Positions 10,496-53,690 of a DNA stretch of 64,000 nt are shown in pieces; position 1 is the stretch's first letter; each line of letters begins with the position of its first letter. The position numbers and the translations under genes were made by a program. This DNA is from Klebsiella phage Miami. The notes below the pieces were generated by a model. The model was given only the letters and a program-made list of their open reading frames with translations. It did no database searches and had not been told where the DNA came from. Location: sequence record MT701590.1. One strand, 5' to 3'.

Positions 10496-10585
10496 ATTTC
10501 CACCGATCGAATCCTTTATATAGGAGGATGTTTACTGTGGGTTGAGCGTGGTAACTTAACCCACTCTTTTTAAAGAGGCAGTATT

Positions 10586-10843: not shown

Positions 10844-10902
10844 TTTAATAGGGGAGGTTCTTCCTCCCCTATCCCTTATACCGCATTTTCGGAATTCTAA
10901 GA

Positions 10903-11313
10903 ATGAATAAAAATGAAATTATTGACCTCCGTTTTGGTCGCAGCGAATTCAAAGTCAATGGGTATTTCGTAGCCTTTACTGCCGGGATGACTAAGCAATT
11001 CGGCAGGGTTGTTAAAATCGAATTTAAAATTAAAAACTCTGCCTCTCGTTTTAGGCTGATCGCTCACGCATTGACGGTTATTGAAGAAACCGATCTCATT
11101 CTTTTGCATGGCGGAGATTCAAATATTATGGAATTTGTACTCGACGCTTGTGAGCAAAGCAAGAGTATTGTTGAATACGGCGGTGAACAGTTCGAAGCCT
11201 TTAATGTTTTGGAACGTGCTATCAAAGAAGACCCCGTTAATTGGGAACGGATGTTAAGTAAAGTGCAGTCGTCCTTGTTAACTAATAGTCCTTTGAGACA
11301 ACATTATCACTGA
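10903..11313 (+). CDS. hypothetical protein
   Basis: 136-aa ORF colinear with neighbours. Confidence 0.5.
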   Translation: MNKNEIIDLRFGRSEFKVNGYFVAFTAGMTKQFGRVVKIEFKIKNSASRFRLIAHALTVIEETDLILLHGGDSNIMEFVLDACEQSKSIVEYGGEQFEAFNVLERAIKEDPVNWERMLSKVQSSLLTNSPLRQHYH

Positions 11314-11332
11314 CTTTAGATGGGAGTGTGCT

Positions 11333-11803
11333 ATGGATACGACGGTTGCTTCAGAGATACCATTAGATCAGACCCCTCAGTACGCAGACGATGTAGAGTG
11401 CACGGATGCGTATATTTTTGAAACCGACGAAGACGGAGTAGGTTTAGAACTCGCTTTGTTCTCTCCCCTGCCCGATAGCTTTACTCCCGTATTAAGAATG
11501 GCTCTGGTCAAGTTGGATACCGCTATGCCTATTGACGGTATAGAGGGTTTATACCGGGATCTTGACCAGACATTTGTTAACAATTACATGACCGGGTATC
11601 TGGAAGATGATTTCGAACGCTTCTTTATCCATTTAGCGGAGCATCTAGAAAGATATGGCGGGGATACTCACCCGGCGATGATTGCGACGATTGAACAGAT
11701 AGCCTGCATGACTGAGATCTACGAGCTAAAGGATTTCAGAGAGTTCATTTACGGCGTGACCGTTATGGTCAAACTCTTTAATCCAGAACCCACCATCCAC
11801 TAA
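11333..11803 (+). CDS. highly acidic hypothetical protein (DNA-mimic candidate)
   Basis: 156 aa with about 31 D/E and very few K/R. RBS ggag upstream. Confidence 0.55.
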   Translation: MDTTVASEIPLDQTPQYADDVECTDAYIFETDEDGVGLELALFSPLPDSFTPVLRMALVKLDTAMPIDGIEGLYRDLDQTFVNNYMTGYLEDDFERFFIHLAEHLERYGGDTHPAMIATIEQIACMTEIYELKDFREFIYGVTVMVKLFNPEPTIH

Positions 11804-11811
11804 AGGTTTTT

Positions 11812-12438
11812 ATGGACACCAAATCCCCGGATTTTTATTTTGATTTAGACGACACCCTGACCGGCACCAACCCTTATTTATATCGCCGCGCTAAAACGTT
11901 TACTAAGCTGAATGGAGAACATGACGTTCACGACGTTCTCGTTCAATCAGAAAAGAATGGATTAACGACCCTACAACTACCTAAACCAATAGGTGATTAC
12001 ATTTTTACCCACTTCCTGGAAGACGGTAACTTTATGTTATCTGTTAACCGGTCTCCGTTATTAGAAGGGAATCTGGGTGCTTTTATTTGCTTGCTTAAAA
12101 CGATAAGAGCCAAAGGTGGGAAGGTAGGTGTTTGTACTCATCGCGGGTTTCATCCCAAAGCCAAGTCTTACTCCGAATATTGGCTAGATGCCAATATTGG
12201 AATGAAGTATTTTGACGAAGTTCATGTCCTCGACCCCAAGGCTCATCCTGATAAGCTGAAGTACCTCGAGACACAGTCAGAATCCTTTAAGTTGGTTGAT
12301 GATAATCCGTTCCATGATTTGAACAAAGTTCATCCCAGGGATAATCGAATCTTGCATTATAACGGGATTTCGGATTACTCAGGTTACCGCTTTCAACGCA
12401 AAGTCAAATCCGTTTCTGATATCATGCAATTGCTTTAA
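11812..12438 (+). CDS. HAD-superfamily phosphatase (nucleotidase-like)
   Basis: HAD motif I FYFDLDDTLT (DxDxT), later Thr-containing motif II-like VCTHRG and a D/K-rich C-terminal motif. Confidence 0.55.
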   Translation: MDTKSPDFYFDLDDTLTGTNPYLYRRAKTFTKLNGEHDVHDVLVQSEKNGLTTLQLPKPIGDYIFTHFLEDGNFMLSVNRSPLLEGNLGAFICLLKTIRAKGGKVGVCTHRGFHPKAKSYSEYWLDANIGMKYFDEVHVLDPKAHPDKLKYLETQSESFKLVDDNPFHDLNKVHPRDNRILHYNGISDYSGYRFQRKVKSVSDIMQLL

Positions 12439-26924: not shown

Positions 26925-26978
26925 AGTATAGTCCATCCCCTAGGGGATGGACTATACTCAACATTTCATTTTTTTTTT
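26925..26978 (+). terminator. strong rho-independent terminator
   Basis: 15-bp palindrome AGTATAGTCCATCCCC-TA-GGGGATGGACTATACT followed by a T10 run. It closes the accessory block before the tailspike cassette. Confidence 0.65.
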
Positions 26979-27070
26979 CACTAACGAATTTTATGCTTTG
27001 AAAACCGAGTATGTGGGACGCCGCATAAACGTAATCATACATGTATGCTTATTGGTGAAAAGAGGACATT

Positions 27071-28708
27071 ATGACCACACCAACCAAATTACCGATTCCC
27101 AGCAATAACTTGCTGGATTCGAGATTTAACTTTGAGAAGTTAGACCAGATAGTTAATTCCGATGCCAATTATTATACCGATAGATTCGGTAAGAAAAGAT
27201 TTACTTTTAATGGAATATATCTCGCTTTAAAAGGATACTTTGATACTTTAAAATCAAATTTATCTTCAGACGAAGGATATAAAGAAATAGGCGGGTTTTT
27301 TAGTGCTGAGGGACCGGAACAGATAGGCTATCAAAAATATTCCATTTTTGATAGAGTTTTCAAAAGAGGGATGTATGAAATTGATCAAGGGCCTGGAGAT
27401 CCAAAAGGAATTGCCGGAATAACATTTGGTGGGGAAAATAATAAAGGGACGATCCTACTGGATGAAAGAGGGCGTATTCAAACCTATTCCGTAAAAGAAA
27501 ATGTTATTACCGCCGCAAGGGTAGCCATTCCCTATGGAGAACTCTTTGGTCAAGGACCTAATGCCAGTAACTACGACGGGCACATCGTCCATTTCCCTTT
27601 TCCAGGAGGAGAAGACGACAGCCTACATTCGTCTTTAGTTTTTATTCCAAACCAATTAGGCGGTTCTGACGTATGGGTGCGGGGACCGGGGGCGTACGGA
27701 AATTACGACGTTCCTTATCCTAATGCTAAAAAAGTGATGTCTAAACTCGCCAAAGTTAATGATCTTCCACCGGCTATATTAAAATCGAGTACCAACTATA
27801 GCAGCTTTGTTAGCTCGGTAAGTTGGAGCCTGCTTTTTGTTTTAAGAACCGATACTGTTGGACCTATTTTTACCGGTGTTTATATTTCTGGAAACGTTCT
27901 TAGTAATGCGGTATATAGTTATCTCATAGAGGTTAACAATGTCGGAACTTTAGCCCCAACTACAGCGACAGCTAAAGATGTGATGAGGGTGACTTGTCTT
28001 AGGGACCGAGGCGACGCCCAGTGGAGTACCGATAACCAGACTAAATTCGGTTACGTTTACGATAGTGCTAATAACACGCTTTCTTTTTATGCTAAAGATG
28101 CGATACGCAGCGATAACGCGACCTTTATTCCTTGGCGTTACACCGATCAAAATAGTGCAGGTGTTTTAGGCGTAGATGTTAAACAACCTAATAACACTTA
28201 TGTTAGCGTGGAGCCCACTGGAATTGTTTATTTAGATGTCAACGACGCATTAACGAACAACACTTATGTGGATCTAAATGATGGGACTGTCGTAAAGACC
28301 ACCGGTGCAGTGATAAGACTCACTAATGGCATTACTTCAAGCACCAAAACACCCATCACGGGATTATTCAAAAAGAACGATGATTATTGCGCTATTAACC
28401 GAGGATATTCCGGGTTAAATATTGTAACGGCAACGAAATTATCTACGGGAACCTATCAAATTACTGGGGCGACAACTAATAAGACGGGTATAGGGTGGAA
28501 ACTCAAATCCCCGGTTTTTTCTGGTGGGAGCGGGATTCAAAATATAGTTGGGAACATAGTTTCTGATACGGGAACTGTGATTACAATCGAAGTAAGACAA
28601 GTGGTCTACACACTTAATACTACGACTAATGCGATCACCCAATCTCTTGGTGATTTGATTGATATTCCTGCTGATTCATGGGTTGATATCCACACGTCAT
28701 TGAGGTAA
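27071..28708 (+). CDS. tail fibre/tailspike paralog 1 (conserved N-terminal anchor domain)
   Basis: N-terminus MTTPTKLPIPSNN..FNFEKLDQIVNSDANYYTDRFGKKRFT is shared with three other genes in the window. RBS aagagga. Confidence 0.7.
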   Translation: MTTPTKLPIPSNNLLDSRFNFEKLDQIVNSDANYYTDRFGKKRFTFNGIYLALKGYFDTLKSNLSSDEGYKEIGGFFSAEGPEQIGYQKYSIFDRVFKRGMYEIDQGPGDPKGIAGITFGGENNKGTILLDERGRIQTYSVKENVITAARVAIPYGELFGQGPNASNYDGHIVHFPFPGGEDDSLHSSLVFIPNQLGGSDVWVRGPGAYGNYDVPYPNAKKVMSKLAKVNDLPPAILKSSTNYSSFVSSVSWSLLFVLRTDTVGPIFTGVYISGNVLSNAVYSYLIEVNNVGTLAPTTATAKDVMRVTCLRDRGDAQWSTDNQTKFGYVYDSANNTLSFYAKDAIRSDNATFIPWRYTDQNSAGVLGVDVKQPNNTYVSVEPTGIVYLDVNDALTNNTYVDLNDGTVVKTTGAVIRLTNGITSSTKTPITGLFKKNDDYCAINRGYSGLNIVTATKLSTGTYQITGATTNKTGIGWKLKSPVFSGGSGIQNIVGNIVSDTGTVITIEVRQVVYTLNTTTNAITQSLGDLIDIPADSWVDIHTSLR

Positions 28709-28711
28709 ATA

Positions 28712-30391
28712 ATGAATTTTTATTATGTCGATCCTTCTCTTAAAGTAGATGGAAACGGAACGCTGTCATCTCCTTTTAATTCGATGGATTCCTTGGTTGC
28801 TTCCAGCTGGGCGCATCCGATGACCATTCTTATTAAAAGAGGGACATCTTTTAAATGGTCGTATTTAAATAATTCCTTAGCTAATCTTAACTCTGTCTTA
28901 TTTTGTAACCAATCTGGAACGCAAAGCGTTCTTTCTTCTTATGGCGATGGTCCTCTGCCAATATGGTATCCGGCAGATGAAACAAAAAGACACACTTATA
29001 CCATATTTCAAAATTTTTACATAGGTGATCTTCAACTATCTCCTACCCCTGGCGTGGTGCAAACAATGGGGTATCTTTATGGTTGGATAAAGGGAGACAG
29101 TAATGGGTTATGTAACATGGAAATCGGTAATTTAAGATTTATAGGAACGCCTGAATCTATCGGTAAGTCTGCTGGAATGAATGAGGTGGCGTGTATATTG
29201 TTACAGGCGGATTACGTCAGTAGGACGAATATCGCGCACAAAATTTACATCCATGACATATACGGAGACCATGTTAATTGTGGAATAATGGTAAGAGGAA
29301 ATCCACATCTTTCCGATACCACTACTTTTTATGGTGATCAAAGAAAAAGTTATGGGGTAAGAATACTGGATATCTCTTTTACAAACATAATCAATTACGG
29401 CATCAAGCTCTGTGGCGCAACCAGTAAAAATAAAAATAAAAATGTGAGGGGGGATGAATGGGAATCCGGATTCGATGGGGTTTATTACTCTTCTTACAAA
29501 ACAAACGTTTATAATCCAAACACCGATCCAAAAGGTTCAACTGGTCGTGCCGATGTTCCCATTTGGATTACTATGTGTTCTTATATCACGGGGCAGAATT
29601 TCGAGATTCACGGATCAGGGCCTGGTCTTCCCGATAGACAATCGTTGGATTTTGATTATCATACCAACAATTGTACTTTTCGATATGGGTATTGTACTAA
29701 CAACGCCAGAGGTCCGATGTTTATACAAGGCCCTTATAGCAACTCTTGGTATGCTGCACAAGGATATACTGCGCCGAGCTCGGATCCGTACACTTTATAT
29801 AAGACATTAGGGTGCGGTGTAATAAATAATGTCATTGAATACGTGACGTTCTATAACGACGGAATCGGCAGAACCGACGAGGTTAGTACATTTAAATGGA
29901 CGAAACCACAAGTTTATCGGTATTGCTATGACAACACCATCAGAAACTGTCTTTTTATCGATTCAGCCACCAGAACGGGTGATAACATTGTAGGGGCGAA
30001 CCCTCAGACTGATGATGATGCAACCGCTAATTCTCTTAGCATCGATAGCTGTATTTTTTATTGGAGAATAAGAGACGAAAGCGATTTAATCTCATCGTCT
30101 GTTGTGACGTCATTTGGAGCCTTACTCCAAAAAATCAGTTTCAAAAACTGTTTGATTTTTTCTAAGTCGTGGGCTACCACGCCATCATTACCTGGCGTGG
30201 TTACATCGGGAATCCTTTACGCAGATCCTAAATTTAAAAATGAAATCCCAACTGTTCCTCCTTCCGGATTTAAAGAAGCGATGAATATTTTGAGGTTATC
30301 AAGTAGTTCTCCTGCTTTATCCGCGGGTACCATTAATCCGAATCCAGATAGTTGGGGCAACACAGGAAAAAATATAGGGTGGGAACAATAA
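28712..30391 (+). CDS. tailspike-associated right-handed beta-helix protein (pectate-lyase-fold depolymerase candidate), lacks anchor domain
   Basis: Starts 3 nt after paralog 1. N-terminus FYYVDPSLKVDGNGTLSSPF..ILIKRGTSF is typical of beta-helix glycanase/lyase domains. 559 aa. Confidence 0.55.
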   Translation: MNFYYVDPSLKVDGNGTLSSPFNSMDSLVASSWAHPMTILIKRGTSFKWSYLNNSLANLNSVLFCNQSGTQSVLSSYGDGPLPIWYPADETKRHTYTIFQNFYIGDLQLSPTPGVVQTMGYLYGWIKGDSNGLCNMEIGNLRFIGTPESIGKSAGMNEVACILLQADYVSRTNIAHKIYIHDIYGDHVNCGIMVRGNPHLSDTTTFYGDQRKSYGVRILDISFTNIINYGIKLCGATSKNKNKNVRGDEWESGFDGVYYSSYKTNVYNPNTDPKGSTGRADVPIWITMCSYITGQNFEIHGSGPGLPDRQSLDFDYHTNNCTFRYGYCTNNARGPMFIQGPYSNSWYAAQGYTAPSSDPYTLYKTLGCGVINNVIEYVTFYNDGIGRTDEVSTFKWTKPQVYRYCYDNTIRNCLFIDSATRTGDNIVGANPQTDDDATANSLSIDSCIFYWRIRDESDLISSSVVTSFGALLQKISFKNCLIFSKSWATTPSLPGVVTSGILYADPKFKNEIPTVPPSGFKEAMNILRLSSSSPALSAGTINPNPDSWGNTGKNIGWEQ

Positions 30392-30399
30392 TCTAACAA

Positions 30400-30432
30400 T
30401 TACTACTGGTCGGTATTTCCGACCAGTAGTAA
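30400..30432 (+). terminator. terminator-like hairpin
   Basis: 13-bp stem TTACTACTGGTCGG/CGACCAGTAGTAA after the depolymerase-like gene. Confidence 0.5.
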
Positions 30433-30512
30433 CCTTCTCGATTTTATGCTGATCTAAATTCAGTAGACTTGCGCAAGTCTTTACAATTTATTTATTCATA
30501 AGGAGTAACCTC

Positions 30513-32627
30513 GTGGCTACAACTCCAACTACGGGTGATATCCCCAGCAATGCTGCGGTGGACCTCAAGTTTAACTCGGAACAATTCGACCGAGTGATGA
30601 ATTCTGACGATCTGACTTATACAGATCGGTTTGGTAAAAAACGCATTACGATGAAAGGTGTACAAGAACTAGCTAACGGGTTCCAGGATACTTTCACTAA
30701 TCTGCTGGGTTCTCCTGACGGGTTCAAATTAATCGGCGGAGTTAAATCTTTTGATACTTTAAGATCGACCCCGGTGAAAACGGAAGGCCAGCGTATTTTT
30801 CTTAAGTCTTATTATGAAAACGGCTCTACCGGCGGTGGTATTTTTATTGGTCATATCGGCACTAAGTTAGATGACGGCGGTACTGTTGCCCAGGGCGTGG
30901 GCTTTTATTGGGAAAGGGTTGGGTCAGAAATAAAACTCGCCGATTACGGGATTTACCAGCAAAATATTTCCGTGGGAACCCCCGTCGACATGTCCGGATT
31001 ATTGCAGAGTGCAATAAATCAAGCGATTTCTCGCAAAACCCATATCGTTACAGGCATGGGAAACGAAAACCATTATATAAAATCAGGGATTTATATAAAA
31101 AATGGGATTACCATAACAGGACTCAAAGGGATCACGGGTCCGCTCCCATTATTTCTAGACTCATCTGTTTTCTCAGGAATAACAGCGCCTGGGTACAGTG
31201 TTCCATGGGCCCTAACTAACCTTAACGCCACGTACGACGCTACAGGAATGATCTTCGGGACATCGATAGGAAACCAGTTAATCGATTCAATAACGATAAG
31301 AGATATTAACTCAAGACATTCCAAATTGGGCGGGCAGCTTCATACATTTAGCGGAACGGTAATTAGAGGGGCTTTATGTTCAACTGGTTTCGACGGGCCA
31401 GGGGTTTACTTGTCGAGCTGTTATGATTCGTCAATTCTTGATGTCCGGGCCATCAGTTGCGGTAACACGTCTTATTGGGGTGTTTCTTTCGAGAGTTATC
31501 CGGCATCAACAGCGTCAACATTGGATACTTCCAATCACTTAACCGTTGGGTCTGTTGAAGTTCACGATTGTTACGACAAATGTTTAAACCTGAATGCTTC
31601 TTCAAGCATGATATCTCATATCCATGAAGAGGCTTCTTACGTCACCGACACCACTACTTGGTCTTCGGCGACGGTCTCGACTAATGGATTTGGATGGACC
31701 AACACCATTCTTTCCGGAGCCTGGTCCGTTTATGGAACAGTTAGAATTCTTCCTACTTCTTCTACTGACAGTAATCACGTAACGACGATCGTTTCTGATC
31801 AGCTAGAAATAGGGTCGATTAACACCACGGGTAATGTCAGTCTCCATTTCTCGTACACGACCGTAAAAAGGGGAATCTCCATAGGTACGGCGGATATAGC
31901 AAAGAATCTCTATGTTACTTCCGATGTTCCTGGAGAAATAGGTTACTGTCAATTGATAGGCGATGCGTCCGTAGCCACCATCTTATCTAACTCATTAAAT
32001 TTTGAATATCTTAATATTCCTGGATCTTCCGGATCGGTTAGTTCCGCCGGAGGCGTGTTTGGAAAGGTCGTGTGTAAAACGGCCAGTTTTAGTTCTTCCG
32101 TAATTCATAAAGGGTCATTTACGACATTGAATTTGTTAGGTAAAACTTACGTTAGGGATGTTGGGGCGGCAGCACTGGTCGTTTCAGGAGGAAAAAATAA
32201 AATAGAGGATTCCTATATTTCTGGGAATGCAACTTTAGACGGCGGCGGAACAATATTTAACACGGACATAGCCGGACCCGCATCCTTTACTGGATCGTGG
32301 GCGTCGAGAATGAATAGAGTTAATGGAAATTACTCTATTGGATCTTCCTCAGCTGAGACGTACGCGTCAGAACATAGTAACATTTTCGTAAACGGTCAGC
32401 TTTCAATCAATGGATACGCTAAAGCATCGTTAGAAAAAATGACCGTGGGTAACATCTACTTCAATGTTACTGGCGGATGGTGTACTTTAGAAAAAATAAA
32501 GATGGCCGGGGCTTTAAGTGGAAACCCAATAAGCGCAACAAATATTCCTGGGTACGGGTCGGTAACAACCAATCCTTCTACCGGGGCGATCTATGTTTAT
32601 AAATCCACAGGATGGACGGAATTATAA
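30513..32627 (+). CDS. tail fibre/tailspike paralog 2 (conserved N-terminal anchor domain)
   Basis: GTG start after aaggagtaacctc. N-terminus MATTPTTGDIPSN..FNSEQFDRVMNSDDLTYTDRFGKKRIT. Confidence 0.7.
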   Translation: MATTPTTGDIPSNAAVDLKFNSEQFDRVMNSDDLTYTDRFGKKRITMKGVQELANGFQDTFTNLLGSPDGFKLIGGVKSFDTLRSTPVKTEGQRIFLKSYYENGSTGGGIFIGHIGTKLDDGGTVAQGVGFYWERVGSEIKLADYGIYQQNISVGTPVDMSGLLQSAINQAISRKTHIVTGMGNENHYIKSGIYIKNGITITGLKGITGPLPLFLDSSVFSGITAPGYSVPWALTNLNATYDATGMIFGTSIGNQLIDSITIRDINSRHSKLGGQLHTFSGTVIRGALCSTGFDGPGVYLSSCYDSSILDVRAISCGNTSYWGVSFESYPASTASTLDTSNHLTVGSVEVHDCYDKCLNLNASSSMISHIHEEASYVTDTTTWSSATVSTNGFGWTNTILSGAWSVYGTVRILPTSSTDSNHVTTIVSDQLEIGSINTTGNVSLHFSYTTVKRGISIGTADIAKNLYVTSDVPGEIGYCQLIGDASVATILSNSLNFEYLNIPGSSGSVSSAGGVFGKVVCKTASFSSSVIHKGSFTTLNLLGKTYVRDVGAAALVVSGGKNKIEDSYISGNATLDGGGTIFNTDIAGPASFTGSWASRMNRVNGNYSIGSSSAETYASEHSNIFVNGQLSINGYAKASLEKMTVGNIYFNVTGGWCTLEKIKMAGALSGNPISATNIPGYGSVTTNPSTGAIYVYKSTGWTEL

Positions 32628-32692
32628 ATTTAAAATCAATCTTATTTCCCTGACGGACGTCAGGGAAATGGCTATTAAAGAAAGGCTAGAAC

Positions 32693-35600
32693 ATGACCAC
32701 GCCAACCGATAAAGATATACCGAGTAACTCGGTACAAGATAGACTGTATAACGCCGAGAAATTTGATGAGTTTATGAACTCGGATAATGTCAATTACACT
32801 GACCGTAAAGGAAAAAGCAGATGGACATTATCGGGTATTAGACAAGCCGTCCAAAATTGGATGGATACTCTGAAAACCAGTTCAGGGGCTTCAGCTATCG
32901 GCTACGGTACGAGCACAGTCGCCGATGAAATCGCTAAGACGGTCAAGCAGCAGATCACTTTCTCAACCGGCGGCACACTGAATACACCGTTAGATCGTAT
33001 AAGTGACGGAACGTATTTGTATTACTGGACCGGTGTATTCCCGAAACAAATCCCGGCGAATTCAACAATTGATTCAACCGGCGGCATGGGAGTTGGTGCG
33101 TGGGCCGCGGATACCGATTCATTATTGAGAAAAAAATTATCAGATGAGGGCGGTTCTCAGCTTATTTTCGGGTTAGGAAACATAATCGGGACAGTCGTCG
33201 AGATCCTGAATTCCACAGAATCCCCCCAGATATATCAGGCAAATGGGTTTTATGCGCAGAATGACGGCGGCGAAGGCGTTTGGGTAGCGACGGGGAATAC
33301 CTCTCCTGAATTATCAGGTAAACACGTGCCATCAAGCGCGGCGGTATACAACGCAAATGGCGTCGAATATCAACTGAAAGTACAATCTGGATTTGAATTA
33401 TCAGCAAAAGCTAACGGATCTAAGCCAGTCAGCAATGTCGATGCTCAAACCGAAGATTTCGTATGTCTTGGTGAAGTAGTGAACGGTATCACGTCGCGTG
33501 TCAAAACTATGAGCAATGACGACGATTTTTGGACGTACCTAAAAGTCACCATACCGTCCGAGACCCCATTACGTATCGGGAAAAGCAGTATCAAGGCTTA
33601 TTCGCGCTTGACGTTAGATTTTCAGCAGGCTTCAATTTACGTCAGGCCGAGCCCGTCAAAACGCCAGGAAGTCACCGGCGTTTATATGAACGCCATCGAG
33701 CGCGGTATTGAAGATATCAAGGCGATATCCGCAAAGTATGCCGGTAAGACGTCTTACTTTAATATGACCGTTTCGAATTTTCACATCATCGGTGGGAAGT
33801 TCTTCGGCGACCATAACACTGATAAGGGGGTTGCGAATTGCAGTACCGGCACTGGATTGCTCACTTACAATTTAGAAGAGTCCAGCGTCACTAATACGTG
33901 GTTCCAGGGATTTGCTTGTGGGCGTCAATACGTCCGCACCGTGTCCGGTTATTATTTCGATAACCTTGGGCGCAAAATAACGGGCACGCTGGTTCCAGAA
34001 GTTGCTTCTTCAGCCACTGGTTCTTATGAGGGCGTTAAGGAATGGTCCGTCACGGCTTATGGCTGCCGTTACATGTACCTGAGAACTGTCAGTAACTGGG
34101 CGAGATTCGAGAACTGCAAATTCGGTACCTACGCTGACTGGGGGTCAAGCCCTGATGGCAACCAGTGCGAATACTTCATTGAGAACCGAGGAGCCGGTGT
34201 AGTATTCAGTGGCGGTGTGATTGAAGCCAATACCTCGGCCGCCAACCCAACAAAAGGCTTTGTGAGGGACTTCGCCCGCGGGTGTACGTTCACAGGTATC
34301 TACTACGAGAACTGCCTGTCGGCTGGGTGGGTCATCACCACTCCTGAAAAGAGCCAGTACAACCGAGCTAATGGACTGTTCCTTACAGCTATTGGGAGTC
34401 AGTATACTGGATCGTCGAAGGGCGCCCCCCTGGTTAAATTTGAACCGGGATACTTTGGCTCATACGACGCTACTACGGGGCTGTATAAAACAGGTGGTTG
34501 GGAAACAAATTACCAGTATTCGGGTGGGGTTAACACCTGGTCTGTAGGTCAACCTGTTTTAGATTCCGGGGCTTTCCCTCACGGTGGGTATGACTTTAAA
34601 TATGGGACTTACGGGATCCATTATTCTGGAGCTGCGCCGGATGTAGACTCGCTTCGGGACACCCCTGAAGGTAATGAGTTTCTGTCTCAATATGGATTAC
34701 TGGTTAACTCCGGAGTTTTGTTATTCCCTGAATTATCCCCGGCATATCACTCTAACATCGTAGTTTGGTATAAAGACCTGACGGGTAACTTTGACCCAAG
34801 GGGTATTGTTGTTGGTGATTTCGACAATAACAACGTGTCTGATGGGACCAGCAATGCGCTCTACCGTACTAATGGGTTTAATTACTATGACTACGGTAAT
34901 GGGTATAAGGCGGCCATTGTGCCCTACGTTAACCCGCGCCCACTCGATAACAGGATGACAACGTCTGCCGGACGCAAGTTAAAAATTACTGTAACCAGTG
35001 ACGCTCCTATTATCCTGAAAAGCATTCAGGCGTTCGTAGGGGGGACTCCGATATTCCCGCCAGCCGTTAAGGAATATGTGCCTCGTTCACAACGAGACCG
35101 CATATGGGGTACTATGACTGGTGCCTCTACGAATTCTGGTGCGTATTACGGTCCACTGATTGGCGGCGGTATCTTCCGACCAGGTGATGTAGTGTTACCT
35201 TTTACGCCGTTCCAGAACCCCTTGTTGCTGGATCCGCTAACGTACACAGATATTTCCGGGACCTTTGGCTCGAGCGCAGAAATCGTTACTATTACCGGTG
35301 GTGCGACCTGGGGAGCTGGATTATCCGGTAAAACCATCGCCCTTACAGTAGTAGACCAAGACGCAACCCATGGCTGGACAACCGTCTCGGTACCGTCTGA
35401 CAGTTTGGCATACATCTTAACCGGGATGCCGGTTAACATAACGGCAAACTCCTCCGGGGGGGGTACAGGGTTTATAAATATTGTACGCAGGATTATTAAT
35501 TCCGATGGGACTCTGAGCAATAATTACGTGTTGTCCGGTACCCTTGGGGCCCCTGGTACGACCCTAACAGCGTCAACAAACGGGAGTTATACATTGCGCT

Positions 35601-36334
35601 CTGGGGTGTCTTCGACGCTTTCTGGTGTTTCTGGTTCGTTCAGTTCTGGATCGTGGTTAGGTTCGTCATCTGGAGATTTGCGCGTAGGGTATGGGGCTTC
35701 ATCTTCTAGTACGCGTCAAATACGTTACTACTACAACGGCACGGATGTGTCCGCCGGGATAGGGTCTAATGGTCTTACCTCCTTGTACTTAACAGGTACA
35801 GGCGGGATCACCCTCAATGGGTCTTTACTAACAAGTACAAGCTACTCATTTGGTAGTGCGTCGGCATACCCAGCGAACATCTACTCTCAAAACGCCGTAA
35901 CAGTAGTCTCTGACGAGAACTACAAAACCGACATAGTAGAGTTAGAAGATGCTGAGATTGAGTGCGCTAAAGCCTGCGCCAAGTTGTATCGCCGCTATAA
36001 GTTGAAAACAGCCGTAGCTTTAAAAGGTGAAGATGGGGCCAGATACCATGTGGGTACCATTGCTCAACTTGTTATGCAGGCTTTCACTGACGCTGGTCTG
36101 GACTGGACGAAGTACGGGATCATTACTTATGAGTCTTGGGAAGATTCCGATGCAGTTTTTGAAACTGTGGGTGCTACCTATGATGAAGAAGGTAATGAGT
36201 TAACTCCTGAAACTACTGTAGAAGTTACTCCTGCTAAAAAGGCCGGGGAAATCTACATGGTTCGCTACGACGAATTTAATAGTTTCGTTATGGCTGGACT
36301 AGAAGCGCGGATTCAAGACCTAGAGATTAAGTGA
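32693..36334 (+). CDS. tail fibre/tailspike paralog 3 with C-terminal intramolecular chaperone (peptidase S74-like) domain
   Basis: N-terminus MTTPTDKDIPSN..YNAEKFDEFMNSDNVNYTDRKGKSRWT. C-terminus SDENYKTDI...YHVGTIAQLVMQAF matches the auto-cleaving chaperone of endosialidase and T5 pb1-type fibres. Confidence 0.75.
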   Translation: MTTPTDKDIPSNSVQDRLYNAEKFDEFMNSDNVNYTDRKGKSRWTLSGIRQAVQNWMDTLKTSSGASAIGYGTSTVADEIAKTVKQQITFSTGGTLNTPLDRISDGTYLYYWTGVFPKQIPANSTIDSTGGMGVGAWAADTDSLLRKKLSDEGGSQLIFGLGNIIGTVVEILNSTESPQIYQANGFYAQNDGGEGVWVATGNTSPELSGKHVPSSAAVYNANGVEYQLKVQSGFELSAKANGSKPVSNVDAQTEDFVCLGEVVNGITSRVKTMSNDDDFWTYLKVTIPSETPLRIGKSSIKAYSRLTLDFQQASIYVRPSPSKRQEVTGVYMNAIERGIEDIKAISAKYAGKTSYFNMTVSNFHIIGGKFFGDHNTDKGVANCSTGTGLLTYNLEESSVTNTWFQGFACGRQYVRTVSGYYFDNLGRKITGTLVPEVASSATGSYEGVKEWSVTAYGCRYMYLRTVSNWARFENCKFGTYADWGSSPDGNQCEYFIENRGAGVVFSGGVIEANTSAANPTKGFVRDFARGCTFTGIYYENCLSAGWVITTPEKSQYNRANGLFLTAIGSQYTGSSKGAPLVKFEPGYFGSYDATTGLYKTGGWETNYQYSGGVNTWSVGQPVLDSGAFPHGGYDFKYGTYGIHYSGAAPDVDSLRDTPEGNEFLSQYGLLVNSGVLLFPELSPAYHSNIVVWYKDLTGNFDPRGIVVGDFDNNNVSDGTSNALYRTNGFNYYDYGNGYKAAIVPYVNPRPLDNRMTTSAGRKLKITVTSDAPIILKSIQAFVGGTPIFPPAVKEYVPRSQRDRIWGTMTGASTNSGAYYGPLIGGGIFRPGDVVLPFTPFQNPLLLDPLTYTDISGTFGSSAEIVTITGGATWGAGLSGKTIALTVVDQDATHGWTTVSVPSDSLAYILTGMPVNITANSSGGGTGFINIVRRIINSDGTLSNNYVLSGTLGAPGTTLTASTNGSYTLRSGVSSTLSGVSGSFSSGSWLGSSSGDLRVGYGASSSSTRQIRYYYNGTDVSAGIGSNGLTSLYLTGTGGITLNGSLLTSTSYSFGSASAYPANIYSQNAVTVVSDENYKTDIVELEDAEIECAKACAKLYRRYKLKTAVALKGEDGARYHVGTIAQLVMQAFTDAGLDWTKYGIITYESWEDSDAVFETVGATYDEEGNELTPETTVEVTPAKKAGEIYMVRYDEFNSFVMAGLEARIQDLEIK

Positions 36335-36473
36335 TTAATAACTCACAATTGATGTGGGGACCGGTGACGAGTGATAGAATCTGTAAGAGGTGACATCGTT
36401 ACAGATTTTTTGTTACCGCACCGGTCGATGTTATGAAAGGATCATGGTTTTATCACACACAGCAGGTACTTAT

Positions 36474-37247
36474 ATGCATAATCGTAGTGTTAAGCGTGCT
36501 AACCGCGACGCTCGTCGCGAAGCAAGACGTCAAGATAAGTCCCAAAGTAGTCAACTGAAACTGGTGGACAACAATTTCAGTGAAGTAAACCTACCTCTTG
36601 CAAAAGCTGATCGGAGTAAGATTGAGCCGAAAACCCCAATGCAACAAAAATATTGGGATGGGTTACACGCCCACGATGTCGTCATCGGTATTGGTGAAGC
36701 GGGTAGCGGTAAAACGTTCCTCCCGACTTGTTACGCTGCAGAACGTCTGCTGGCTAAAGACGTGGAAAAGATTATCGTTACACGACCAGTCCTACAGGCC
36801 GATGAAGATCTGGGTTTTCTCCCCGGGGATGTTAATGAGAAATTCGCACCTTACTTCCGACCGGTCTACGATATCTTACTGAAGCGCCTGGGTGGTGGAA
36901 TGCTTAACTATTGCATGAAGCCTGGCGTGGAGAAAGTTGAAGTCGCCCCCTTTGCTTTTATGAGAGGTCGTACTTTTTCTGACTCAGTAGTGATTCTTGA
37001 CGAAGCGCAAAACGTTACAGTTATGCAGATGAAAATGTTCATCACTCGTATGGGTGAGAACACTACGGTAATCATCAACGGCGACCTTACCCAGTGCGAT
37101 CTTCCTAAAGGAGTTAAATCCGGTCTGGAAGATCTGCTGGAACGCATTGAACGAGATCCTGAAAATGGATTCCCGATTTATCGTTTCAATGCGGCTGATA
37201 GTGTGCGGTCAGAGATTTGTTCCAAAGCCCTGAAACTTTATAAGTAA
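36474..37247 (+). CDS. phoH: PhoH-like ATPase
   Basis: Walker A GIGEAGSGKTFL, LGFLPGD, APFAFMRGRT, Walker B VILDEAQN. The start was moved to ATG 36474 (RBS aggt), because the track ORF starts upstream in the intergenic region. Confidence 0.8.
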   Translation: MHNRSVKRANRDARREARRQDKSQSSQLKLVDNNFSEVNLPLAKADRSKIEPKTPMQQKYWDGLHAHDVVIGIGEAGSGKTFLPTCYAAERLLAKDVEKIIVTRPVLQADEDLGFLPGDVNEKFAPYFRPVYDILLKRLGGGMLNYCMKPGVEKVEVAPFAFMRGRTFSDSVVILDEAQNVTVMQMKMFITRMGENTTVIINGDLTQCDLPKGVKSGLEDLLERIERDPENGFPIYRFNAADSVRSEICSKALKLYK

Positions 37248-37256
37248 GTTCTAATA

Positions 37257-37291
37257 ACTCCTACTCCCGATAAGGGAGTAGGAGTTATTTT
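37257..37291 (+). repeat. repeat-family hairpin copy 2 (terminator)
   Basis: AACTCCTACTCCC-GATAA-GGGAGTAGGAGTT followed by ATTTTAAA. After phoH. Confidence 0.65.
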
Positions 37292-37337
37292 AAACGCACC
37301 ACGACCATTTATGAACTTTTCATAAGAGACTGTAATC

Positions 37338-37805
37338 ATGAACCTCATGTACGACAATTACTACGGAAAAGAAATACTTGGATTGGGTTTAGAGGGTGAA
37401 GTCATCACAATGCTAAATTTGGCGATGGCTGATATTAATCACTTCGCTAAGAAAAGTATCGCTAAAGATATCAACCCCTATCCGTTCAATCTGGAAGATT
37501 TTAAGCACAACCGTTTTAACGAACACTACTTCCTCGTTTTTGATGGGAAGAAAATAGTGTCGATTCTATCCGTCGTTTACGCTTTAGAGCATCATCTCAA
37601 AATAGCTAAAATCTTTAACGTTTATACGTTACCGGAGTATCGCCATAAAGGGCTTGCTAAACGCAACCTAATCGCCGCTATCGTGTCGGCAAGATCAAAT
37701 GGGTACATTGTGCAGTTAAACGTTTACAGGTCTAATAAAGCCGCTCAGAGGCTTTACAAGAGCCTTAAATTTAAACCCGTCGAATACACTATGCAGCTCG
37801 GTTAA
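37338..37805 (+). CDS. GNAT-family N-acetyltransferase
   Basis: GNAT motif A YRHKGLAKRNL. 155 aa. Confidence 0.65.
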   Translation: MNLMYDNYYGKEILGLGLEGEVITMLNLAMADINHFAKKSIAKDINPYPFNLEDFKHNRFNEHYFLVFDGKKIVSILSVVYALEHHLKIAKIFNVYTLPEYRHKGLAKRNLIAAIVSARSNGYIVQLNVYRSNKAAQRLYKSLKFKPVEYTMQLG

Positions 37806-37917
37806 TTTTAACGACCATAATGTTTTATTGGTAATAAACGAGAATACGTTGTTTTAAACATCGGTTTGAAATAACACGTTCTCATTTTAAACAATAAATA
37901 AAAAGGTAATAGCCGTT

Positions 37918-38706
37918 ATGAAAATCACGAAACAAGAATTATTATCCGCTTATGTTAACAACGGCACGTCAGATGTCTTAATTATCAATAAAGATAATGA
38001 CACGTTAACTCTTCGTCTTCGTCAGTCTGATACCGATTACGACGATTTCAAGAACATCATAGGTTGGTTAGAAGAAATCACCTTCGTTGGCCATAATGAA
38101 TTACGTCTAAATCCAGGATCCTCACTAACCGGTAAGATCCATCTGGATAACGTGAGTTCTGACGTAGCGAAACTTAATATCGGCCACAGCTCTCTTGGTG
38201 TAACTAAGATAATTGGACGTGGTAGTGTGGAACTCACTAACGCCAGGATACAAGCGGCCACGATCATCTCCAATGCAGGTGATGATGTTACGACAATTAA
38301 AGATTCCGAAATCATTAAAGTTGATGTGGGGGCGAGTAAGATAGCTAATAGTTCTTTGGTTTGTAAAGACATCGTAGGATCGTCCCTCAAAGTCCATAAC
38401 TCCGATATTTGTCATTCGGTTATTTACGCTAACGGGGGAGAGATATTGGATAAGGCGATACGTTCTATTGTCGTCGATACGGACTTATTCGAAGGGAAGT
38501 ATTTATCCATTGGATTCAACGGTTGTCAGATCGTTTGTTATACAAATAAGAACGAGAAGATCGTCGTTGTAGGCGATAAACGATACAACCTAGGACTGTG
38601 GGAAGAACAATTCGTTAATAAAGAGCAAAATTCATTCATTAAAATGGTGAATCAAAAGAAATTAGAAATGATGAATATGTTCTTCGATAGTTTGGCGTTT
38701 AAATAA
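37918..38706 (+). CDS. beta-solenoid repeat protein, hypothetical (possible virion/tailspike accessory)
   Basis: Repetitive short beta-strand units (V/I-x-x-S-x-I/V). Converges with inverted tailspike paralog 4 on a perfect 18-bp palindromic hairpin. Confidence 0.5.
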   Translation: MKITKQELLSAYVNNGTSDVLIINKDNDTLTLRLRQSDTDYDDFKNIIGWLEEITFVGHNELRLNPGSSLTGKIHLDNVSSDVAKLNIGHSSLGVTKIIGRGSVELTNARIQAATIISNAGDDVTTIKDSEIIKVDVGASKIANSSLVCKDIVGSSLKVHNSDICHSVIYANGGEILDKAIRSIVVDTDLFEGKYLSIGFNGCQIVCYTNKNEKIVVVGDKRYNLGLWEEQFVNKEQNSFIKMVNQKKLEMMNMFFDSLAFK

Positions 38707-38712
38707 TAAAGT

Positions 38713-38748
38713 TTTACTCTACCTCGCGATATCGCGAGGTAGAGTAAA
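38713..38748. terminator. bidirectional terminator between convergent genes
   Basis: Perfect 18-bp palindrome TTTACTCTACCTCGCGAT|ATCGCGAGGTAGAGTAAA. Confidence 0.6.
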
Positions 38749-38752
38749 TTGT

Positions 38753-41323
38753 TTAACTTACATAAATGGAAGTTAACGATAGCTGGGAGAATATCCCTGA
38801 AATGTACGCCTGAACACCTCGCGTCCCTACGGTGTAGCGATCAATAAAACTATTCATTTGGGTCGAACTAGTTCCTGAATAGTCAGTCCCTGAAACCGAC
38901 ACGGAGGTTGTTCCCGATAGAGTATTGACTGAACTGGTAATATTAGTGGCGATGGATCTCGCCAAAATACCACTTCCGGGATAGTCAATTTTAAAAACAT
39001 CAAAAAAGGTATTACCGGATTGCAAATGGGTGGCCTGCAGACAATTTCCTTTGGCCACATATAAAGCCCCGGACCAACTACTATTATTTACTCCGGTGTT
39101 CCAGATCATCAGAGAAGAAATTGGCGTACCTGAGTTATTATAATAGGAGCAGTCACTTAACCGGAACCATTGGGCTAAATTCAAATTAGATGATGTGACC
39201 GAACTTAACGAGTAGTCGCCGGAAAAACTTACCCCTGACGCTTTCAGTCTGTGAAGGAACGCCGAATCGGCGGTCGTTAAAGGCAAATTAGTCCCTGATT
39301 TGACACTCCCTCCCCTCATGTTAATTTCTACACGTTGATTGGCTTCCTGGGTGCCGTCGTTGGTAATGAACCTTGATAACTCACAGTCGTTGAAATTATA
39401 GGACCCCCTTTGTGAGATTCTCACTAGGGTGGGGGTGCCGTTGTAATTGGGGTTGTGTAATCTCCTAGCGTCGAGCCTAATATTGTGTTGAAATCCGTAA
39501 GATGGACGTTTGATAATTAAATTATCCACCCCTACGTTGTTCATACTGACTTTCATGTCGATAGGTTCGAACATAGTGTCGGTCGATGCAGAAGTATTGC
39601 TTGCCCTGGGCTTCGTGTTGGTGAAATCAATTTTTAACGTCCCGCCGGCGGCGTAGGTAACGTTGTCAAATCGAATATTCATAGGAGGGGTAACCGTTCT
39701 GTCGCGGTTTATCCAATAAATATTTTGAAGGCAACTAGAAGCTTCCGGAGTCTCAATAGTCAAGCCGTCAATATCTATTTTATTAAATAGCTCCCCAGCC
39801 ATCTGAGACCCAGTAGGTAAAGAAGTGTAATTATCGGCGGCTCCCTGTACAATGGACCCTTCTCCATTGGACGCTAAACTGTAATATTTCCAAAATCCTC
39901 TGACCCTGACGTTACGCATAATCAGCGTCCCATCGGTGATTCCTCCGGAAGTAGTCCTGGCCTGCACAAGTGAAGGGAAAAGAAATTTTCCGTAGTAAGG
40001 GTCTCCGGATCCCCTCCCCAGTTCGTATACTGTGTCAAGTATCTCGAGAGTTGAGTTTTTAGTACCTAAGAAAACAGCAGCTCCGTCACCAATCTTGCAG
40101 TTTACAAGTTTGTAATATCCGATGCTTGGGTTATGACTATCGAAGTTGTTGGCCGAGCAATTATCAAAAATGGTATCGGCTATCCAACCGGCCGCGGATA
40201 TCGACCCCCATCCGTAGCCAAACGCGTTTACGTTTCTTACGTATAACTTCGCCCCCCACCCATGGTGGAGTGTGTAAGATGCATAAATGGTCGTTTGATC
40301 CGAGGAAGAAAAGGAAGCGGTTGGGTGAGCGTCGTAGATGAAATCCACGTAGGTGTTGTAGTAATACTGAATGTCGATAACGTGACGTGATCCTATTTCC
40401 GTAATCGGTTTATTGAGTATTCTCCCCTCTTTTATGATCAAGTTGGACACATAAAAGAACTGGAAGAATATAGGTCTAGGTCCATAACGATAGTCGACGT
40501 CCGGCATAATAAATTCACTGAAACCAGCCTGGATAGGTAGCGCCGATATGCTAGTAATCGACGTCCCGTTGTAAGGGAAGACGTTATCCATTTTGCCGTT
40601 AGCGCTTATCCTGGTTACGTGAGCGAGTTTCTGAGTTTTTGCGCCAGCTTGGGTTTGTGTGCTATTATAAACATATAGGTCGTCTGAAAAATTCATAATG
40701 ACCATGCTGTCGTTTAAAGTCGTGTCCGATCCCAACGAATCTAAACAACCGTTTCCGCTTAAGAAGTCTGTGGAGGCATTAGCATTTAACTTAGTTACCA
40801 CGGAAGATCCGGAGGCATGGTTAACTAATCCGCTCGATTGAGAGATCCAGAAAGTCCCGGTAAAATCAGCCGCCGGAATAATTTTCATTCCCCCTAAATC
40901 GGTCTTCTTATTATCGATGATCCAGTTAAACTTGGCGTTACCGGAAATCAAGTACTCACCAGATTTTTGTTTTATAGGAATGCCCGTCAATGTCGACAAT
41001 TGAATAAGGGCTAAAAGTTTGTCGGTGACGTCAACATCCCCCGTGTTCTCTATACCAAACATGTCACAGGAAAGAAATGTTTGAAGGTTAGAGACTTTAC
41101 CTCCATAAGGAAGATTTATAATTGACGACCCGTCCCCTCCGGTTAAAACATTCAGGGTTTCCTGGACGGCCGCCGCTACCCCCTTAGCGGTCAATCTCTG
41201 GTTACCAAAACGATCAGTATAGGTATTCTCATCGGAATTAATGATCTCATCTAACTTTTCGGCATTAAATCTAACATCTATAGCGGTGCTACTGGGTATA
41301 CCATTTTGTGTTGGAGTCGTCAT
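38753..41323 (-). CDS. tail fibre/tailspike paralog 4 (conserved N-terminal anchor domain), inverted orientation
   Basis: N-terminus MTTPTQNGIPSS..FNAEKLDEIINSDENTYTDRFGNQRLT. RBS ggagggagag on the minus strand. 856 aa. Confidence 0.7.
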   Translation of the reverse strand: MTTPTQNGIPSSTAIDVRFNAEKLDEIINSDENTYTDRFGNQRLTAKGVAAAVQETLNVLTGGDGSSIINLPYGGKVSNLQTFLSCDMFGIENTGDVDVTDKLLALIQLSTLTGIPIKQKSGEYLISGNAKFNWIIDNKKTDLGGMKIIPAADFTGTFWISQSSGLVNHASGSSVVTKLNANASTDFLSGNGCLDSLGSDTTLNDSMVIMNFSDDLYVYNSTQTQAGAKTQKLAHVTRISANGKMDNVFPYNGTSITSISALPIQAGFSEFIMPDVDYRYGPRPIFFQFFYVSNLIIKEGRILNKPITEIGSRHVIDIQYYYNTYVDFIYDAHPTASFSSSDQTTIYASYTLHHGWGAKLYVRNVNAFGYGWGSISAAGWIADTIFDNCSANNFDSHNPSIGYYKLVNCKIGDGAAVFLGTKNSTLEILDTVYELGRGSGDPYYGKFLFPSLVQARTTSGGITDGTLIMRNVRVRGFWKYYSLASNGEGSIVQGAADNYTSLPTGSQMAGELFNKIDIDGLTIETPEASSCLQNIYWINRDRTVTPPMNIRFDNVTYAAGGTLKIDFTNTKPRASNTSASTDTMFEPIDMKVSMNNVGVDNLIIKRPSYGFQHNIRLDARRLHNPNYNGTPTLVRISQRGSYNFNDCELSRFITNDGTQEANQRVEINMRGGSVKSGTNLPLTTADSAFLHRLKASGVSFSGDYSLSSVTSSNLNLAQWFRLSDCSYYNNSGTPISSLMIWNTGVNNSSWSGALYVAKGNCLQATHLQSGNTFFDVFKIDYPGSGILARSIATNITSSVNTLSGTTSVSVSGTDYSGTSSTQMNSFIDRYTVGTRGVQAYISGIFSQLSLTSIYVS

Positions 41324-41436
41324 CTCTCCCTCCGACTATAAAAATTAACGGCCACACATATTACTATGCATGACTCCTAATGAACTTGGGTCATAAAATT
41401 CAACATGATATTAATCTACATTATTGAGGTTTTATT

Positions 41437-52396: not shown

Positions 52397-52852
52397 ATGT
52401 CATTACTGAAAAACATCGTTATTAAATCTTCTTCTATTTCCGCCATCTGCGGGATTCCGACTTATAAGGATAAACCTTGCGCTTACACCAACGTGGGGTT
52501 CAATCGCAAACTTTACGGCACTGGCGTGGATTACGTCCTTGATAATTCGGATGGGATCCTCAAACAAACTAATCTGGATGAAGCCAGTTCTGATCAGCCG
52601 ACTAAGCTTAACGGTGTTTTCATTATTAAACACATGACTGGGTTGGTTGACGGCAATTCCTGCGTAATCGGGGTTAAGGATGACGTTATCCTTTGCGTAG
52701 CGGATAGCAAGGGTCTTATTTGGACCCACCCCACCCATTCCACAATGACCATTCAGGATGAATGCCTCAAAGAGGTGATGACTCCGGATGGATTCGAGCA
52801 GTATAAGCTGGGGCGCAAACGTCGCTTCTCTGACGATCTGGCTTTCTTTTAA
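52397..52852 (+). CDS. hypothetical protein
   Basis: Preceded by TTTAGGGAAACGTATCATG. Confidence 0.5.
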   Translation: MSLLKNIVIKSSSISAICGIPTYKDKPCAYTNVGFNRKLYGTGVDYVLDNSDGILKQTNLDEASSDQPTKLNGVFIIKHMTGLVDGNSCVIGVKDDVILCVADSKGLIWTHPTHSTMTIQDECLKEVMTPDGFEQYKLGRKRRFSDDLAFF

Positions 52853-52864
52853 AGGAAACGAAAA

Positions 52865-53179
52865 ATGCACTCGCAACTCACGACCATTATCGACACGGTA
52901 GAACGGGTTAAAAACGATCGGTTTAATCCCGAGACCTTCATCACCAGTCGAAAAGTAAGCACCAACGATATGGTGTTTTCTTACAGTTATCTTTTGGGTA
53001 ATCTTTACATCAAAGGTGCGTTCGACGACGGCGAATTCGAAATCTTCAAAGATCACGCTACCTGGCAGGTTTGGATCTGGGGTGAAAAGAAACCTGATCG
53101 CTGTCAGTTCTCCTGTCCTGAACACGGGTACGATAAAGTAAAACACTTTATCGAAACCACTTTCCCAGAAACGAAATAA
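52865..53179 (+). CDS. hypothetical protein
   Basis: 104-aa ORF, RBS aaaggaaacgaaaa. Confidence 0.5.
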   Translation: MHSQLTTIIDTVERVKNDRFNPETFITSRKVSTNDMVFSYSYLLGNLYIKGAFDDGEFEIFKDHATWQVWIWGEKKPDRCQFSCPEHGYDKVKHFIETTFPETK

Positions 53180-53225
53180 CTTAATCGGGAGGAAACTCCC
53201 GATTGATAGATTAGGAAACCACGCC

Positions 53226-53690
53226 ATGTCCGATATTTTTGAAGCTAAGACTTATATCGAAATCGTTTCTTGTTCTGATGACGAGGTGATTCTTAGAGAT
53301 ACTCGCCATGACGGGATCTTGAAAATTAAATGCCTCGGTGATTTAAAAGGAACCGCCGTCTGTTCTGAAATCCAACATGCTTTTATTTACGGTAATCTGT
53401 TGCTGAGAATCAAAGGAGAGAATACTTTCTTCTGCAAAGAAGGGTTTGACCTATCAGGTAACGTTCAAATCCATAACGTTGTTCTTCTCGACCCTATTTT
53501 GGAAGATGCTTCTCTGATCGACGTTGAACTCCCTAATGCAGAGTTAAGCGTCCGTTTTGCTTCTCTTGAAAACGTTCCTTCTTATAAGCGACCAAAGAAA
53601 ATTACCTTGGCTTACGGGTTGTATGCAGGAAGCGATCTTTGTGGTTCTTCAGATATTAACCGTATTAACAGATCGAATGTAAGAGTCTAA
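53226..53690 (+). CDS. hypothetical protein
   Basis: Preceded by TTAGGAAACCACGCCATG. Confidence 0.5.
   Translation: MSDIFEAKTYIEIVSCSDDEVILRDTRHDGILKIKCLGDLKGTAVCSEIQHAFIYGNLLLRIKGENTFFCKEGFDLSGNVQIHNVVLLDPILEDASLIDVELPNAELSVRFASLENVPSYKRPKKITLAYGLYAGSDLCGSSDINRINRSNVRV

Follow-up and report, generated by a model that had tools for sequence, protein, structure and literature searches.

We analyzed a 64,000-nt stretch of the genome of Klebsiella phage Miami (sequence record MT701590.1; the whole stretch is referred to below as the window), concentrating on a locus with four spike genes that carry a common N-terminal anchor. These genes are labeled P1, P2, P3 and P4. The locus consists of eight genes: P1, an open reading frame (ORF) coding for a 559-residue protein, P2, P3, the genes for a PhoH-like ATPase, a GNAT acetyltransferase and a 262-residue protein, and then P4 on the minus strand. 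All four anchored ORFs proved to have the lengths given in the initial annotation of this DNA. The spike genes and the 559-residue partner of P1 are arranged as follows:

27071..28708, plus strand: P1, 545 residues; anchor at residues 1-57 (27071-27241), followed by a fibre-type body with Phage_tail_C_2 (residues 427-541)
28712..30391, plus strand: anchorless 559-residue partner of P1, a predicted right-handed beta-helix carbohydrate-active enzyme
30513..32627, plus strand: P2, 704 residues, GTG start; anchor at residues 1-58 (30513-30686), followed by a predicted beta-helix body related to KN4dep and to an FBKp24 spike
32693..36334, plus strand: P3, 1213 residues; anchor at residues 1-57, Tail_spike_N at residues 77-138 and a predicted KN2/KL102-type depolymerase body
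35909-36331, plus strand: Peptidase_S74 intramolecular chaperone of P3, starting from Ser1073
38753..41323, minus strand: P4, 856 residues; anchor at residues 1-57 (41153-41323), followed by a predicted K64-ORF41-type polysaccharide lyase body

The common N-terminal anchor

Alignment of P1-P4 revealed a shared N-terminal module of 57-60 residues and no other similarity. Among the first 48 residues, 22 positions are invariant in all four proteins, and in each of them (4/4) the anchor occupies the extreme N-terminus (residues 1-57 by alignment). Pairwise BLASTP comparisons gave a single high-scoring segment pair for every pair of proteins, restricted to a region that starts at residue 1 and ends between residues 60 and 103 (39-53% identity, E-values of 1e-14 to 1e-18). 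When profiles were built from three copies at a time, the fourth copy was recovered at E-values of 1e-23 to 3e-25, the next six-frame match in the 64 kb being at 0.9-3.5. No fifth copy was found in the window by the six-frame profile search. Both the shared N-terminus of about 60 residues and the complete divergence after it, originally noticed by reading the translations, are thus borne out by alignment and profile statistics. At the DNA level, the four anchors share just 50-60% of their nucleotides, and the longest exact matches are 7-12 nt. Therefore, they appear to be old paralogs that have kept their similarity at the protein level, and the same values make anchor-to-anchor recombination inside this genome today unlikely.

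A phmmer search against PDB sequences showed that the anchor is homologous to approximately residues 4-59 of gp13, the tailspike of Shigella siphophage Sf11, which is recorded as 'putative tail protein gp13' (PDB 9OCC chain G, 9occ_G). The E-values were 3.5e-11 for P1, 1.3e-9 for P2 and 9.2e-10 for P4; for the anchor stretch of P3 the independent E-value was 3.3e-9. In the 9OCC structure, residues 4-59 of gp13 represent N-terminal helices, and the three helices contributed by a spike trimer form a bundle with one helix of the adaptor gp17 (PMC12724387). According to the cryo-electron microscopy (cryo-EM) data, this bundle of gp13 and the distal tail protein gp17 is what fixes the spike to the tail (PMC12724387). 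Homology to the tail-bound part of gp13 thus substantiates the earlier interpretation of the common N-terminus as a virion-attachment module. P3 resembles gp13 in one more respect, as in both proteins the anchor is followed by a Tail_spike_N domain. The N-terminal ~55 residues of the spikes are homologous (about 50% identity for the P4 anchor by tblastn), yet in Sf11 (Cedarrivervirus), a siphophage of 46 kb, a single type of spike sits on the helix of the distal tail protein, whereas the locus described here belongs to a jumbo myovirus and codes for four spikes (6-9 in its relatives) with diverged anchor alleles.

The distribution of the anchor was explored at two levels. A tblastn search with the anchor gave 234 phage records, and nearly all of the matches listed were 45-50-kb phages with one copy each. 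Multiple copies (7-9) were seen, among the matches listed, only in the ~250-kb relatives of the window. The anchor profile, compared with 1.84 billion representative sequences, recovered 1279 proteins; in nearly all of the 150 listed matches the module is located at residues 1-60 of proteins that are 500-1300 residues long. One candidate produced by the profile search (P0095) was rejected as a spurious tandem-repeat artefact.

Spike bodies and the two-gene module of P1

Downstream of the anchor, residues 154-1213 of P3 are 82% identical over 1060 residues to ORF96 of phage 0507-KN2-1, an experimentally verified depolymerase of the KN2 (= KL102) capsule. The similarity includes the S74 chaperone. 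However, the N-terminal 150-190 residues of the two proteins are unrelated, ORF96 having an Ackermannviridae-type attachment region in place of the Sf11-type anchor of P3. P3 shares 73% identity over its full length with a tail fibre that likewise bears the anchor, that of the 48-kb Klebsiella phage VLCpiS13a. Pfam searches identified Tail_spike_N and Peptidase_S74 in P3 as well as Phage_tail_C_2 in P1. The G+C content of the P3 gene jumps from 40.6% in the anchor to 48.8% in the body, as expected if the body had been imported. By homology, P3 is expected to degrade capsules of the KN2/KL102 type and to have a self-cleaving chaperone at its C-terminus.

P4 residues 55-763 match the K64-ORF41 lyase structure 8X8M (E-value 8e-52). 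Tyr350, His397 and Arg456 of P4 align with residues 548, 594 and 648 of the 8X8M chain, which correspond to the catalytic Tyr528, His574 and Arg628 given the constant 20-residue offset due to the tag. Although about 700 residues are homologous and the Tyr/His/Arg triad is kept, the N-termini differ and the sequence identity is low, so that the K64 specificity cannot be assumed for P4. Homology suggests a polysaccharide lyase of the K64-ORF41 type. P2 residues 45-191 resemble the necks of DpK2 and Depo32, both K2 depolymerases. The body of P2 shares 51% identity with a spike of phage phiKp24 (FBKp24) and 35% with a KN4-1 protein that is annotated as a tail fibre and is presumed to be KN4dep. 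By homology, P2 can be assigned as a putative beta-helix depolymerase of the KN4dep family. For three of the four spikes, the initial view of the bodies as receptor-degrading enzymes is supported by these similarities: a close one to a verified KN2 depolymerase (P3) and more remote ones to a lyase with its triad (P4) and to KN4dep (P2). As for the 559-residue protein, no Pfam match was found. Its AlphaFold model, with a mean predicted local distance difference test score (pLDDT) of 60, matched only right-handed beta-helix hydrolases and lyases, at template modeling (TM) scores of 0.45 or lower, in agreement with the beta-helix fold originally predicted for it.

The ORF for the 559-residue protein starts 3 nt after the P1 stop codon, with GAGG inside the end of P1, and the protein has no anchor, as described initially. 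In ~40 phage records of myo-, sipho- and podovirus types, a P1-body homologue and a homologue of the 559-residue protein adjoin each other in the same order. Among them are RaK2 (gp526/gp525) and phiKp24 (gp312/gp313), whose pairs are direct homologues of the one described here, KpS110, 0507-KN2-1, siphophage 1513 and podophage K15PH90. Where the gap between the two genes was measured, it was 3 nt in the window and about 11-27 nt in four other phages, while in RaK2 the genes are annotated as overlapping. In 1513, KpS110, 0507-KN2-1 and K15PH90 the module is composed of a non-enzymatic anchored receptor-binding protein (RBP) and an anchorless putative depolymerase; the bodies are 29-59% identical to those in the window, and the order and tight spacing are the same. 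The difference lies in the anchor of gene 1, which here is that of the present lineage; the anchor profile had no match in RBP1 of phage 1513. Indeed, the first gene of the module has a different, phage-specific N-terminus in each phage, whereas the second always begins directly at M-x-(Y/L)-Y-V-D. Because only gene 1 varies its N-terminus, the simplest reading is that gene 1 alone must fit the virion and that gene 2 rides on it. The proposed partnership of the two proteins is thus strengthened by their constant association in ~40 phages.

Slots, intergenic signals and neighboring genes

The window is part of a ~250-kb jumbo myovirus of the KPN8 / YC1 / phiKp_32 lineage. Its backbone is 91-96% identical to those of five jumbo phages of 251-257 kb: KPN8, YC1, phiKp_32, VB_ZK_P1 (Raoultella) and BUCTxx100 ('Stenotrophomonas'). 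KPN8 is a myovirus with annotated split RNA polymerase beta subunits. Since it encodes split subunits of a multisubunit RNA polymerase, the lineage is probably phiKZ-like in transcription. The jumbo phages described as a 'novel genus' (iScience 2023) were considered as possible members of the same lineage and rejected; they are ~299 kb in size and were placed nearest Moabitevirus in that paper.

The layout of the locus is the same in all five relatives: a forward row of 5-8 anchored genes, PhoH, GNAT, a gene for a 262-265-residue protein and one inverted anchored gene. The relatives have 6-9 anchored genes in total versus four in the window, the fewest in the lineage. Nucleotide identity with the relatives (87-97%) extends into the start of P1, P2 and P4 and then stops. 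For P1 it extends across the flank and ends 100-145 nt into the gene. For P2 it covers 72 nt upstream and the first ~400 nt of the gene, the P2 neck being conserved to about residue 135 in all relatives. P3 shares only the first 120-170 nt, at 73-81%, and P4 the first 120-130 nt, except that the whole P4 gene is common to KPN8 alone (KPN8_83, 97.8% nucleotide identity). The anchors are 70-100% identical to those in the same slot of other phages versus 48-55% to paralogs in their own genome; the P2 anchor is identical at 56 of 56 positions across six phages. An IMG/VR scan with the conserved P2 N-terminus returned only relatives at 36-37% identity. This comparison shows that the anchors are slot-specific and that recombination right behind the anchor exchanges the bodies.

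The suggestion of modular horizontal exchange is thus upheld by identity that ends just after the anchors, and base composition agrees with it. The initial impression that P1 and its partner are more AT-rich than P3 held when G+C content was computed: 40.8% in P1, 39.9% in the partner gene, 43.9% in P2, 44.3% in P4 and 48.4% in P3 (window, 42.9%). At third codon positions, the G+C content is 36% in P1 and the partner gene versus 49% in P3. The P1 anchor looks like a hybrid. Up to about residue 41 it is of the slot-1 type; beyond this point it has the sequence KKRFTF.G.Y, which is typical of the middle slots. These slots are missing here, consistent with a recombination between anchors that would have deleted them.

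Two observations concern individual relatives. In phiKp_32, one spike slot is split into a 259-residue anchor fragment and a separate ORF of 445 residues (locus stretch 9898-12170), and the annotation of the same genome places TnpB genes elsewhere, near the locus. For the phages recorded on Stenotrophomonas and Raoultella (OR529409.1 and PV662128.1), backbone identity to the Klebsiella phages is 91-95%, and the differences lie mainly in the spike bodies. The host genus may follow the cassette, or else a host label is doubtful.

Hairpins and occurrences of an 8-mer, ATTTTATG, mark the borders of the spike units:

26925..26958, plus strand: hairpin with a perfect stem after the upstream gene of 117 residues, at the left cassette border (-26.6 kcal/mol, z-score -8.25)
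26988..26995, plus strand: ATTTTATG, candidate regulatory element or promoter for unit 1; 83 nt upstream of P1
30400..30432, plus strand: hairpin ending unit 1 (-23.8 kcal/mol, z-score -7.4)
30441..30448, plus strand: ATTTTATG, start of the block that is conserved in relatives; 72 nt upstream of P2
32644..32669, plus strand: hairpin between P2 and P3, no T-run (-18.8 kcal/mol, z-score -4.1)
38713..38748, no strand assigned: perfect terminator-like palindrome of 36 bp between convergent genes; both strands fold at -28 kcal/mol (z-score about -8)
41392..41399, minus strand: ATTTTATG, 76 nt upstream of P4

The palindrome, TTTACTCTACCTCGCGAT followed directly by ATCGCGAGGTAGAGTAAA, has 18-nt arms; the perfect palindrome reported earlier at the 3' end of P4 is therefore real. 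It was also considered as an inversion scar. This explanation was rejected, as the palindrome belongs to a set of four strong hairpins with perfect stems (z-scores of -4 to -8) that lie between genes and bracket the units. Counting both strands, the 64 kb contain three copies of ATTTTATG, all of them upstream of an anchored gene. The corresponding loci of the five relatives contain 20 occurrences, all 20 located 45-83 nt upstream of an anchored gene and often directly behind a terminator-like hairpin. The last four nucleotides of the motif, TATG, are also the consensus of phiKZ late promoters, in which transcription starts at the G (PMC4666361). We hypothesize that ATTTTATG may act as a promoter of spike units. 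Its role as a general late promoter was rejected: in KPN8 the 100-150-kb region has no occurrences and the 150-200-kb region has five, mostly intragenic. Scans for consensus sigma-70 promoters and for terminators gave results at chance level across the region.

Three genes separate P4 from the remaining spikes:

36474..37247, plus strand: PhoH-like ATPase, 257 residues from the probable true start; conserved spacer gene, not a part of a spike
37338..37805, plus strand: GNAT acetyltransferase; conserved spacer gene
37918..38706, plus strand: 262-residue protein without known function; conserved in position, variable in the middle part

The listed start of the PhoH gene is the GTG at 36390. Relatives begin at MHNRSVKRANRD, which corresponds to position 36474 of the window and gives 257 residues; judging by this comparison, 36474 is most likely the correct start. 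For the 262-residue protein there was no Pfam or PHROG match. Its gene is conserved at the ends, while the middle (about 37940-38500) is diverged in all relatives, including KPN8 despite the 97.8% identity of the neighboring spike gene. The statement that P4 is one of only two minus-strand genes in the 64 kb turned out to be inaccurate, as the window contains at least three credible minus-strand ORFs (5936-6922, 38753-41323 and 52403-53227). Neither 5936-6922 nor 52403-53227 is overlapped by a plus-strand ORF of comparable length. Elsewhere in the window, an ORF of 339 residues (57070-58089) has matches to T5orf172/MUG113 and to zinc fingers, suggesting a homing endonuclease-like protein. Seven small ORFs located upstream of the cassette showed neither PHROG matches nor features of an adaptor protein.

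Proposed attachment of the spikes to the virion

We assign a probability of roughly 80% to the following reading of these data: the region represents a four-spike receptor-binding locus, in which an Sf11-type attachment module is fused to swapped glycan-degrading bodies. By homology to Sf11 gp13, the 57-residue anchors would form a three-helix collar in each spike trimer. The collar would clamp a single helix of a tail or baseplate protein and in this way fix the spike to the virion. If so, as many as five distinct glycan-targeting activities would be present on the virion, and bacteria of several capsule types could serve as hosts. By comparison with the relatives, the locus itself corresponds to a row of fixed 'sockets', each made of a hairpin, then the upstream motif (in three of the four sockets) and then a slot-specific anchor, with only the bodies being exchanged.

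Several points weigh against this reading. A significant homologue of Sf11 gp17 was found neither in the six-frame translation of the window nor in ~125 kb of KPN8 (69-94 and 100-200 kb), although a short helix may escape a sequence search. The docking partner and the bundle geometry are proposed by analogy with Sf11 only, and the incorporation of all five proteins into the virion is likewise presumed. For P1, the model was of poor quality (pLDDT 55) and matched no known fold, and the fold assignment was therefore dropped. The model of the 559-residue protein is confident just in the first ~200 residues. Moreover, identities of 30-51% cannot give the capsule specificity of P2, P4 and the 559-residue protein.

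How the spikes are arranged relative to each other is a separate issue. As every spike has the same type of anchor, parallel docking is favored over a hierarchy, with the exception of P1 and the 559-residue protein. We tentatively put forward a specific, possible form of it: all spikes would dock side by side on a multi-helix adaptor through slot-specific variants of the triple-helix anchor, the anchor allele would set the position on the baseplate, and ATTTTATG would serve each socket for late expression. The alternative is a hierarchical branching in which one anchored spike would be attached to the baseplate and the others would hang from it or from each other (cf. CBA120, RaK2/K64-1 and phiKp24), the common N-terminus being a spike-to-spike contact. 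Other Klebsiella jumbo phages have been modeled in this manner, and the Tail_spike_N domain of P3 and Sf11 gp13 is also present in CBA120 tailspike proteins; failure to find a baseplate adaptor in the window or the ~125 kb of KPN8 points in the same direction. However, the anchor is of the same kind on all spikes, and in the only solved case it binds a tail protein and not another spike. In addition, Pfam, PHROG and PDB sequence searches detected no T4gp10-like docking domain, the mark of a primary RBP in the branched scheme of Latka 2019, in the five proteins (no profile-profile search was run), and anchor alleles are conserved by slot while bodies change, which would be odd if the bodies held the docking sites. 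On balance, we consider branching improbable.

Two further alternatives concern individual genes. The 559-residue protein might be a soluble depolymerase that is freed at lysis and is not a component of the virion, its adjacency to P1 reflecting co-regulation only. This would agree with the absence of an anchor and with the proposal of Latka et al. that the homologous anchorless second protein of phage 1513 may be soluble, which is another point against counting all five proteins as virion components. A homologous pair was also found in a bacterial chromosome with no obvious virion context, in a contig of Candidatus Pantoea formicae (3285-6617), in reversed order and near a Wzx flippase gene. 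Yet in this pair the P1-like protein has a Tat-type (twin-arginine) signal, whereas the adjoining 559-like protein (58% identical) has no signal-like extension and starts at once with the conserved N-terminus, an arrangement that would fit a physical complex or export as a complex. The small gaps that keep the pair together across unrelated phages, with a new anchor always on gene 1 only, also speak against a soluble enzyme. So does the homologous gp313 of phiKp24, which Ouyang et al. class as a tail fibre with a short N-terminal peptide that may attach it to another fibre (gp313 is absent from the DepoCatalog supplements). We find a soluble enzyme rather unlikely; P1 is a fibre-like protein that most likely carries the anchorless beta-helix enzyme as a passenger. 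For P4, the initial annotation proposed inversion or independent acquisition. A recent event of this kind, with the palindrome marking the junction, would account for the opposite strand, for the three unrelated genes between P4 and the other spikes and for the perfect palindrome at the 3' end. All five relatives, however, hold the same inverted slot behind the PhoH-GNAT-262-residue trio, with an orthologous anchor (70-100% identity), the same upstream leader and only the body changed, and therefore the inversion is ancestral and not recent, and an independent acquisition of the module is not supported either. The palindrome sequence is common only to KPN8 and phiKp_32, and similar hairpins are found at the ends of other units. 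A recent origin of the P4 slot is thus extremely unlikely.

Multi-depolymerase spike systems of this kind are already well known for Klebsiella phages. PhiK64-1, RaK2 and phiKp24 (vB_KpM_FBKp24) also have many spikes of different capsule specificity encoded in one or two clusters. However, their systems have been modeled as branched from T4gp10-like domains and various conserved peptides, in contrast to the single anchor type observed here, and their backbones are unrelated to the window at the nucleotide level. We found no description of the locus of the present lineage in the literature searched. What appears to be new is the Sf11-type anchor in this lineage, multiplied into slot-specific alleles, as well as the conserved inverted slot and the unit-specific upstream motif. 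If the parallel, plug-board-like docking on an adaptor is true, it would be unlike the hierarchical T4gp10-type branching modeled for other Klebsiella jumbo phages and directly usable for swapping spike bodies. The clean breakpoints right after the anchors mark body-exchange sites for phage engineering. Klebsiella phages are limited by capsule specificity, and multi-spike phages are a natural way to a wider range. The locus predicts at least one capsule target, KL102, plus three further candidate enzymes. Now that the structure of a homologous attachment module has been solved, anchor peptides offer a means of testing how a large phage can carry many different spikes.

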